From the NCBI GenBank assembly GCA_037440125.1, contig JBBIUU010000008.1, forward strand, positions 1-59,564: DNA of 59,564 nt. The letters are read 5' to 3'. Source of the DNA: Acidobacteriota bacterium. GTDB lineage: Bacteria; Acidobacteriota; UBA4820; DSQY01. The first letter of the stretch is position 1. Each line of letters begins with the position of its first letter. Made by a program: the position numbers and the translations under genes. Below, piece after piece: positions 7,054 through 8,247 of the stretch. The notes under the pieces are model-generated. The model made no database searches. It saw only the letters and a program-made list of their open reading frames with translations, and was not told the DNA's origin.

Positions 7054-8247
7054 TCACTCCACGATTTCCGTGACCGTACCGGCTCCGACGGTGCGGCCAC
7101 CCTCCAGGATGGCGAACCGGAGCCCCTTCTCAAGGGCGACGGGCGCCTCCAGCTCCACCTGCACCGCGGCGTTGTCGCCCGGCAGGACCATCTCGCGGTC
7201 CGCGGGGAGCTCGACCGAGCCCGCCACGTCCGCCGTCCGGATGAGGAACTGCGGCCGGTACCCCTTGAAGAACGCCGACTGGCGGCCCCCCTCTTCCCTG
7301 GCGAGGGTGTAGGCCTCCGCTTTGAACTTCCTGTGGGCGGCCGCCGCCGCGGGGGCGGCGATCACCTGGCCCCGGCGGATCCCGCCGCGGTCCGCGCCGA
7401 CGAGGAGGAGGCTGACGCGGTCGCCCGCCTGCGCCTCCACCATGGCGCGCTGGAACATCTCGACGCCCGCGACGGTCGCCTTGAGCGTACCGCCCAGGCC
7501 GACGATCTCGACCTCCTGGCCCGCGCGGGCCCGGCCGCGCTCGACGACGCCCGCCACCGCCACGCCGCCGGAGGCCGGCTCGTACACGTCCTCCACGGGC
7601 ATGAGGAAGGGTTTGTCCACGGCCCTTGCGGGCACGGGGATATGGGCGTCGCAGGCGTCCAGGAGCGCCAGGATGGGACCGCACTTTGGGCAGCTACGCT
7701 GGCCGCAGCCGCAGCTCAGCGCCTGGAGGGCGGACCCGCGGACCACCGGAGCGTCGGGGTAGCCCTCGGTGGCGAGGAGGTCGCGGACCTCCTTCTCGAC
7801 GAGGCCGATGAGCTCCTCGCCCTCCACCTGGTCGGCCTTGCTGAGGAAGACCACGAGGCGCGGCACGCCCACCTGCTTGGCGAGCTGGACGTGCTCGTGC
7901 GTCTGGGGCATGACCCCGTCCGCGGCGGACACCACGAGGATGGCGCCGTCCATCTGCGCCGCCCCCGTGACCATGTGCTTCACGTAGTCCGCGTGACCCG
8001 GGCAGTCCACGTGGGCGTAGTGCCTCGTGGACGTCTGGTACTCGACGCGGGCCGTGTGGATGCCGATGTCCCCCGCCTTCTCCTCGGGGGCCTTGTCGAC
8101 CTGGTCGTAGGCCGTGAACTGGGCCAGGCCCGCCGCCGCAAGGACGCGCGTGATCGCCGCCGTCAGCGTGGTCTTCCCGTGGTCCACGTGGCCCAGGGTC
8201 CCGATGTTGGCGTGAGGCTTGGTCCGCCCGGACGCTGCGCTCGACAT
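7054..8247 (-). CDS. tuf: Elongation factor Tu family GTPase, atypical (see findings)
   Basis: 397 aa. P-loop GHVDHGKT and [12 protein letters not shown] are present, as are the [10 protein letters not shown] and [15 protein letters not shown] domain-3 motifs. It occupies the canonical tufB position after the four tRNAs. Confidence 0.9.

Follow-up and report, generated by a model that had tools for sequence, protein, structure and literature searches.

EF-Tu is among the most conserved and most abundant of bacterial proteins, and the question raised by the locus described here is how a gene in a classical tuf position can encode a protein that departs from the family at so many conserved residues. 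The window, a stretch of 59,564 nucleotides (nt) comprising positions 1 to 59,564 of contig JBBIUU010000008.1 (Acidobacteriota bacterium, assembly GCA_037440125.1), carries at nt 7054-8247 of the minus strand a gene for an EF-Tu homolog of 397 residues with an ATG start; all window coordinates below also refer to the minus strand. Pfam finds the three EF-Tu domains (GTP_EFTU, D2, and D3), and the closest PDB matches are EF-Tu structures (~57-62% identity). A comparison with the family model TIGR00485, which the sequence-only reading of the window had called for, gives 560.4 bits, above the cut-off of 522.4 but well below the canonical relatives, by 130 to 200 bits (canonical relatives, 688 to 764; the divergent clade described below, 543 to 591). 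The gene order, tRNA-Thr/Tyr/Gly/Thr, tuf, rpmG, tRNA-Trp, secE, nusG, rplKAJL, and rpoB, is that of a tufB-type locus; the open reading frames (ORFs) and tRNAs bear out the textbook synteny already recognized in the sequence-only reading. The evidence discussed here indicates that the gene is probably one of a pair of EF-Tu paralogs, namely the copy in the tufB slot, and that this copy is maintained by selection and is no longer a general carrier of aminoacyl-tRNA (aa-tRNA).

Residue changes are given in mature E. coli numbering, in which the switch I threonine is Thr61 (UniProt numbering is one higher). Conserved columns are the 235 columns that are at least 95% conserved among 114 canonical EF-Tu homologs. 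The window protein departs from the canon at 43 of them, many more than chance would produce, compared with a median of zero departures for canonical sequences. A homolog search spanning about 5.8 billion proteins places it in a divergent clade of at least 20 sequences, in which Thr61 is replaced by Gly or Pro: position 61 is Gly in the window protein and 14 other sequences (the Gly61 sub-clade), Pro in the homolog clusters P0019 and P0027, and Thr in at least 98% of the 114 canonical homologs. At 31 of the 235 conserved columns the canonical residue is gone in at least 14 of the 15 Gly61 sequences, and many of these changes are fixed in the sub-clade to one new residue: I17L, R58G, T61G, H66R, P111V, D142G, Y160E, F218Y, R223G, R230V, K263R, T320S, P321A, and R377L.

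The G domain is altered selectively. The P-loop, GHVDHGKT (G1; residues 19 to 26 of the window protein, nt 8170-8193), is invariant in all aligned sequences, and the DCPGH of G3/switch II (residues 81 to 85, nt 7993-8007), with the catalytic His84, is likewise intact, just as had been read from the window alone. Switch I (residues 59 to 67, nt 8047-8073) is degenerate in the alignments, with R58G, G59D, T61G, N63H, and H66R. Residues 59 to 65 (nt 8053-8073) read GDIGIHT, and because the alignment of this segment with E. coli and canonical relatives is ungapped, Gly62 of the window protein occupies the position of E. coli Thr61; the loss of this threonine, first proposed in the sequence-only reading, is thus confirmed. 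To our knowledge, the switch I threonine is invariant across translational GTPases. The new motif is itself nearly invariant, reading GIGIHTARV in 14 of the 15 Gly61 sequences and GIGIHTSRV in the remaining one. In closed EF-Tu·GDPNP, Thr61 and Gly83 touch the γ-phosphate, and both are disengaged in the open form (PMC6144822). Two members of the clade, P0004 and P0005 (L083:1280-2467), have DCPAH for DCPGH and so lack the DxxG glycine of switch II, which points to a further erosion of γ-phosphate sensing in part of the clade.

The guanine-specificity motif, G4, reads SKAD instead of NKxD (residues 136 to 139, nt 7831-7842). Translation and alignment show that this deviation is real. It is not clade-wide, being confined to the window protein and its closest relative, P0001, and is thus a recent change; the other members have NKxD. 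SKAD retains the Lys and the Asp of the motif and replaces only the Asn with Ser, and Ser or Thr at this position is known in other GTP-binding proteins, for example in the TKxD of dynamin. The SAL of G5 is kept. Beyond the G domain, a segment of domain 2 (residues 219 to 238, nt 7534-7593) contains F218Y, I220P, G222S, R223G, T225V, V226A, T228A, and R230V, and the domain 2 motif noted earlier as changed does read SGGVAVAG. In domain 3, GGRQSAFF (nt 7267-7290) replaces the canonical GGRHTPFF through H319Q, T320S, and P321A, of which the last two are common to all 15 Gly61 sequences, and AILEGG (nt 7096-7113) replaces AIREGG through R377L, which is fixed across the whole divergent clade, P0019 and P0027 included.

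Many of these changes fall at sites through which EF-Tu handles its substrate. The amino-acid pocket is composed of H67, E216, D217, F219, T229, and N274 in UniProt numbering (PMC6386890). Four of these six residues are altered in the window protein (H66R, F218Y, T228A, and N273R in the numbering used here), and E215 and D216 are kept. Other residues that contact aa-tRNA are also altered, with N90H, H319Q, T320S, T338A, and R377L. From structural knowledge of the Thermus ternary complex, Asn90 is presumed to bind the 5' end of the tRNA, and His319, Thr320, Thr338, and Arg377 are taken to lie at the T-stem interface. Gly222 and Arg279, which we assume from structural knowledge and E. coli genetics to be important for ribosome-dependent activation and for contact with the 30S subunit, are altered as well. 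Residues that are kept comprise the P-loop, His84, Lys136, Asp138, SAL, helix D, Gln329, and Glu378. An AlphaFold2 model of the protein has a mean predicted local distance difference test score (pLDDT) of 84, falling below 50 at residues 54 to 64; its closed, GTP-like domain arrangement was not used as evidence of conformation.

The relatives of the window protein form a well-separated group. P0001 is 91% identical to it, P0002 87%, and P0003 to P0005 74 to 76%, followed by a gap to canonical EF-Tu at no more than 67%. The switch I, domain 2, and domain 3 substitutions are common to all of these close relatives, which were assembled independently (JGI, ENA, NCBI, and Logan) and number 13 in the P0003 cluster alone. 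The P0019 and P0027 clusters share with them the loss of R58 together with I17L, D142G, R230V or R230L, K263R, N273R, P321A, and R377L, besides having Pro for Thr61. In a neighbour-joining tree, all of the divergent sequences form one long-branched clade, which is sister to canonical Cys4 tufB-slot genes of the same Acidobacteriota group. The tufB-slot context, Hfq-PdxA-SerS-outer-membrane protein-tRNAs-tuf-rpmG-secE-nusG-rplKAJL-rpoBC, is found for P0001 (L081/L082), P0005 (L083), a P0003-like gene (L086/L215), and P0019 (L094-L097), and canonical genes (P0008, P0012, and P0016) occupy the identical context in sister metagenome-assembled genomes (MAGs), including L084 and L085. On the basis of these sequences, the clade appears to belong to one uncultured Acidobacteriota group related to Thermoanaerobaculia. 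A pattern scan of genome contigs with the window protein gave, among the matches listed, only ordinary EF-Tu (57-62% identity) and no clade member, and an exact look-up of the window protein gave no record. Two longer matches, P0006 and P0007, were considered as fusions and rejected, since they are mis-assembled canonical EF-Tu genes with internal duplications. In L091 and L092, which carry exactly P0016, tuf is joined to unrelated neighbourhoods, an inverted gene for the outer-membrane protein in one case and a different nusG-rplKAJL-mraZ cluster in the other; both appear to be assembly chimeras with the breakpoint in the tuf/tRNA region.

The feature that had first drawn attention to the protein, a CxC-x4-CxxC knuckle formed by Cys179, Cys181, Cys186, and Cys189 (nt 7681-7713), has a different distribution. 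The four cysteines are present as described, and the alignment has a 5-residue insert relative to E. coli EF-Tu at the knuckle. They are no deviation, since CGCGxxxCxxC occurs in 113 of the 114 nearest canonical homologs as well as in all divergent members, the sole exception being E. coli itself, which was added for reference. Carriers are labelled Acidobacteriota, Nitrospirota, Nitrospinota, Desulfuromonadales/Deltaproteobacteria, Caldanaerobius polysaccharolyticus, and Sulfobacillus acidophilus, and the canonical ones show no departure at any of the functional positions examined. A widespread type of EF-Tu therefore carries the knuckle as part of its normal make-up. None of the solved EF-Tu structures has the motif, and a literature search found no paper on a Cys4 or zinc EF-Tu; as far as could be found, the type is undescribed. 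In the AlphaFold2 model, the knuckle has pLDDT values of 94 to 97, with the CxC ending a helix (residues 173 to 179) and CPKC directly preceding another (residues 190 to 202), a placement that fits a knuckle.

The sequence-only reading had suggested a specialized or regulatory paralog, provided that a canonical copy follows fusA elsewhere in the genome. A second type of tuf (tufA), recovered along with tufB-slot genes by a metagenome scan with a family-specific peptide pattern, lies directly 3' of fusA and encodes a protein of 400 to 402 residues that lacks the knuckle and is canonical at all key sites. The two types are found together in one MAG of the clade, GCA_036169775.1: the canonical P0270 (400 residues) lies between the C-terminus of EF-G and rpsJ-rplC on JAVHNV010000481.1, and the divergent P0005 is on JAVHNV010000575.1. 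They are only 57% identical. In addition, fusA-tuf and family tufB-slot loci occur in the same sample in five metagenomes: JGI20214J51088 (L195 with L081, the closest relative of the window), Ga0315271 (L135 with L169), Ga0078972 (L116 with L089), Ga0209018 (L128 with L134), and Ga0272448 (L151 with L187). The distance matrices of EF-G and tufA group the lineages as the ribosomal proteins of the paired tufB-slot loci do, with corresponding relative distances. The suggestion of a paralog is thus favoured, although for the genome of the window itself the second copy is presumed from its relatives.

The two sets of loci also have an uncommon arrangement in common. Downstream of the tufB slot, rpoC is followed by cyclic nucleotide monophosphate-binding and MacB/ABC genes on the opposite strand, not by rpsL-rpsG-fusA (L086:14394-24275, L087:4909-14889), and the str-S10 operon lies elsewhere (L211-L214), preceded by a dCMP-deaminase gene or a tetratricopeptide-repeat gene and not by rpoC. 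Inside the group with divergent tufB-slot genes, tufA is 93 to 96% identical, as is normal for EF-Tu, as against 67 to 76% for the tufB-slot gene; its nearest named relatives are those of Thermoanaerobaculum (83-84%). Even where both copies are canonical, tufA and the Cys4 tufB-slot gene of the sister lineages are only ~75% identical, and the two loci are therefore old paralogs that have not been homogenized. The canonical EF-Tu encoded after fusA very probably does the normal job. As a separate observation, tufA-type genes (L195:3620-4825, L212:4001-5209, and L216:109-1311) carry a 5-residue insertion in switch I, GRRDPTKILTI.

Comparison with neighbouring genes reveals that the tufB-slot gene has accelerated. 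Between the window and the sister MAG L084, RpoB is 83% identical, L1 80%, SerS 77%, and PdxA 77%, values that closely match those between L085 and L084 (84, 79, 78, and 76%, respectively); for tuf, the corresponding figures are 67% for the window and 86% for L085. Among the lineages with a divergent tuf, ribosomal proteins are 90 to 97% identical to one another and tufB-slot genes only 67 to 91%. The nonsynonymous rate (dN) between the window and L086 is 0.157 for tuf, 0.052 for RpoB, 0.040 for L11, and 0.047 for L1, whereas for the canonical pair it is about equal for tuf (0.096) and RpoB (0.106). The tufB-slot gene thus evolves 3 to 4 times faster than RpoB or L11 inside the clade.

This acceleration is distributed unevenly, and the gene is still kept by selection. 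Pairwise ratios of nonsynonymous to synonymous rates (dN/dS) inside the clade are 0.16 to 0.22, although with the NG86 method the synonymous rate (dS) is near saturation in these GC-rich genes and absolute values are rough. By domain, the ratio for the divergent clade compared with the canonical pair is 0.25-0.56 versus 0.10 in domain 2, 0.12-0.19 versus 0.16 in the G domain, and 0.08-0.14 versus 0.16 in domain 3. Invariant columns tell the same story: divergent sequences retain 25 of 90 in domain 2 and 6 of 25 in switch I, compared with 65 and 18 in the canonical tufB type, while the knuckle region has 17 and 16 of 29, respectively, and the mean conservation of domain 3 is 0.92 in both. Relaxation falls mainly on domain 2 and switch I. 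The ORF is intact in at least 20 clade sequences that differ by up to 33%. An apparent exception is the long-read contig L086 (ERZ25039477 contig_33897, 537 kb), with two 1-nt insertions in tuf (L086:5100-6313) and a split gene for the outer-membrane protein. Pseudogenization was considered for this contig and rejected: alignment with contig_116721 of the same assembly (L215), which has an intact tuf, requires 25 gap openings in 2.5 kb, and because the contig is indel-rich and an intact gene is present in the same assembly, the insertions are probable assembly errors.

Together, these findings are best accounted for by a division of labour between two kinds of tuf, which would coexist in each genome: a knuckle-free canonical gene in the str operon (rpsL-rpsG-fusA-tuf-rpsJ), filling the role of general aa-tRNA carrier, and a Cys4 gene behind the Thr-Tyr-Gly-Thr tRNA cluster. 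In the sub-lineage of the window, the second copy would have been freed from the constraints of general aa-tRNA delivery. Its losses include the switch I threonine that senses Mg2+ and the γ-phosphate along with Arg58, four of the six pocket residues, the Asn at the tRNA 5' end, several T-stem contacts, and several invariant domain 2 residues, Gly222 and Arg279 among them. Ordinary purifying selection has preserved the P-loop and switch II, including His84, as well as the Lys and Asp that bind guanine, SAL, helix D, domain 3, and the Cys4 knuckle. To judge from the residues retained, the protein probably retains guanine-nucleotide binding and probably holds a metal at the knuckle, and the normal closed, Mg-coordinated GTP state would be out of its reach. 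It would be kept because the G domain, domain 3, and the knuckle serve in another role or in a residual one, and may be an accessory factor associated with the ribosome or EF-Ts, or linked to zinc, an idea prompted by its probable co-transcription with rpmG.

Several points weigh against this interpretation. A protein in which selection maintains the P-loop, helix D, domain 3, and His84 could still work on the ribosome, and the 14 or more substitutions fixed to one residue, together with the near-invariant switch I, fit a new specific function equally well. The assignment of contact residues draws in part on the textbook Thermus ternary complex, and the dN/dS values are, as mentioned, rough in absolute terms. 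The canonical copy in the genome of the window is presumed from a clade member with 74% tuf identity and from co-occurrence in samples; MAG binning could err, and co-occurrence and congruence argue otherwise. A related but more doubtful possibility is that the clade represents a natural "pseudo-switch" GTPase that derives from EF-Tu and has its own function, a nucleotide-binding protein with a Zn knuckle that is co-expressed with L33 and has abandoned general aa-tRNA delivery. It might carry one anionic or unusual aminoacyl-tRNA (given H66R, F218Y, and N273R), or might regulate the ribosome or EF-Ts in a manner linked to zinc or stress. If this were true, the clade would be the second distinct bacterial EF-Tu-like subfamily after the actinomycete actEF-Tu, and the first without the G2 threonine.

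Sequencing or assembly artefacts, which the sequence-only reading had named as a possible refutation, have a negligible chance of accounting for the deviations: the same substitutions turn up in assemblies made independently from many samples and sources (JGI, ENA, NCBI, and Logan), and the reading frame is intact. That the protein is the sole EF-Tu of its organism, a functional quirk of the lineage, would agree with its canonical tuf position, good codon usage, and Shine-Dalgarno-like site, and with the finding that there is no second tuf inside the 59.5-kb window. It is nonetheless highly improbable given the canonical tuf in the MAG of a clade member, the co-occurring fusA-tuf loci with congruent phylogeny, and the lack of precedent for an essential, sole EF-Tu that has no Thr61 and evolves 3 times faster than RpoB; the related earlier proposal of a lineage-specific, metal-binding EF-Tu is unsupported. 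A redundant tufB copy decaying slowly into a pseudogene, with no function of its own, would explain the 3- to 4-fold acceleration, the loss of catalytically and functionally critical residues, and, were they genuine, the two insertions in L086. Such decay is hard to reconcile with dN/dS values of 0.16-0.22 for the whole gene and 0.08-0.19 for the G domain and domain 3, with intact ORFs in so many diverged sequences, with the many substitutions fixed to one residue beside a strictly conserved knuckle, or with the intact gene in L215, and it is considered quite improbable.

The protein could also still function in elongation, as a back-up EF-Tu that is condition-specific or insensitive to antibiotics, in the manner of Streptomyces EF-Tu3 (actEF-Tu); its odd residues would then make it refractory to natural products or toxins that target EF-Tu. 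The clade is altered at L120 (to Q, E, or K), Y160 (Y160E), R230 (R230V), G275 (to S, N, or A), V226 (to A or S), and R223 (R223G). We take L120Q and Y160 (kirromycin), R230 (pulvomycin), and G275 (GE2270A) to be E. coli resistance sites and V226 and R223 to lie in the GE2270A binding site, assignments for which a literature search gave no confirmation. Divergent Streptomyces EF-Tu duplicates are described as stress-expressed and antibiotic-resistant (PMC4342817), and purifying selection on the G domain, His84, helix D, and domain 3 is also consistent with continued activity. However, the loss of the switch I Thr, Arg58, His66, Asn90, Gly222, and Arg377 goes well past known resistant-but-active variants, the neighbours in the window are all housekeeping genes, with no biosynthetic gene cluster among them, and domain 2 is relaxed rather than fixed in a new state. 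A back-up factor is thus unlikely. A carrier specialized for a single unusual aminoacyl-tRNA, whose side chain would probably be anionic, comparable to SelB or to the engineered EF-Sep and EF-Sel1, is suggested by the four altered pocket residues and the remodelled T-stem contacts; H67R and F219Y are found in EF-Sep, and H67R and N274R in EF-Sel1, proteins selected for binding to Sep- or Sec-tRNA (PMC6386890). Within the clade, however, the pocket varies: N273 is Gly in P0003-P0005, His66 is kept in P0019 and P0027, and Thr228 is kept in P0003-P0005 and P0019 and is Ile in P0027. Glu215 is kept throughout and position 216 is Asp or Glu, and therefore the acidic pair persists. Natural carriers of the SelB kind are generally understood to keep the switch I Thr, and the window contains no gene for a partner such as SepRS or SelA, so that this alternative, too, is very unlikely.

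These comparisons place the tufB-slot paralog with respect to known systems. Its direct evolutionary source is, by sequence and tree, the canonical Cys4-knuckle EF-Tu, as found in Sulfobacillus acidophilus, Caldanaerobius polysaccharolyticus, Nitrospirota, Desulfuromonadales, and the sister genes P0008 and P0012, of which the last two share its genomic slot. These proteins (397 to 400 residues) have the same CGCGxxxCxxC insert but, unlike the window protein, are canonical at all functional positions examined, and score 733 to 764 bits with TIGR00485 versus 543 to 591 for the clade. As in E. coli, with its tufA and tufB, the two loci lie in classical positions, after fusA and after thrU-tyrU-glyT-thrT. 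The E. coli copies are near-identical through gene conversion (PMC4342817). In contrast, even the canonical pair is only ~75% identical here, and the tufB-slot copy of the window lineage is degenerate. Engineered EF-Sep and EF-Sel1 share the pocket changes H67R, F219Y, and N274R with the window protein (PMC6386890), but have an intact switch I and a neutralized E216 and D217, whereas the clade keeps the acidic pair and its other pocket changes are not uniform.

The closest parallel is with actEF-Tu, the Streptomyces EF-Tu3 encoded by tuf3 in some Actinomycetales, which has been described as the only clearly distinct EF-Tu-like subfamily (Atkinson 2015; PMC4342817). In both cases a diverged extra tuf exists beside a canonical one, having escaped gene conversion, with ~60-65% identity to the main copy and changes at positions linked to EF-Tu antibiotics. 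The clade described here belongs to another phylum and arises from the Acidobacteriota Cys4 tufB-slot group, in the tRNA-tufB-rpmG-secE slot; because it is sister to those genes, common descent with actEF-Tu is unlikely, and it would be a comparable case of independent origin from a Cys4-type tufB. The Acidobacteriota clade moreover lacks the switch I Thr and many aa-tRNA contacts, whereas Streptomyces EF-Tu3 is reportedly an active translation factor. The clade suggests that tuf duplicates can escape gene conversion for a different fate outside the actinomycetes, and it offers a natural experiment that could show which parts of the EF-Tu surface stay important when the protein no longer has to deliver aa-tRNA. 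Since scores within the clade pass the TIGR00485 cut-off, pipelines name its genes "elongation factor Tu"; as such, they can lead astray phylogenies built on tuf, estimates of copy number, and marker-gene analyses.

Upstream of tuf lies the tRNA cluster Thr(UGU), Tyr, Gly, and Thr(GGU) (nt 8311-8951), and a Shine-Dalgarno-like sequence, GGTAGGAAG (nt 8254-8262), can be read directly 6 nt 5' of the tuf ATG. The rpmG gene (nt 6901-7050) begins 3 nt past the tuf stop codon, a spacing also found in relatives, and no terminator-like site was seen between the tRNAs, tuf, and rpmG in the window. Thus, tuf and rpmG are probably co-transcribed. A scan for σ70-like promoters yielded no site, a result that is uninformative for this phylum. 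The GC content at third codon positions of the window tuf is 0.95, similar to that of RpoB and the ribosomal protein genes.

L33, encoded by rpmG, and L28 (nt 41329-41574) are both of the Cys-containing CxxC...CxxC (C+) form, as previously noted from the sequence. RpoB residues 84 to 135 (nt 3104-3259) comprise an N-terminal Cys8 insert, CxC...CxxC...CxxC...CxxC, suggestive of two Zn-binding sites; the pattern is present in all 13 RpoB homologs checked, down to ~58-60% identity, some of them labelled Acidobacteriia or Polarisedimenticolia. With L33, L28, the Cys4 EF-Tu paralog, and this insert, the region is rich in putative Zn-binding proteins of translation and transcription. Finally, NusG (nt 5947-6564) has, in the lineages with a divergent tuf, an acidic, Ala/Pro-rich N-terminal extension (MDENPNPTPDQIPAEGAAEAPAEAS...), which brings its length to 199 to 245 residues, compared with 173 in the sister MAGs L084 and L085.

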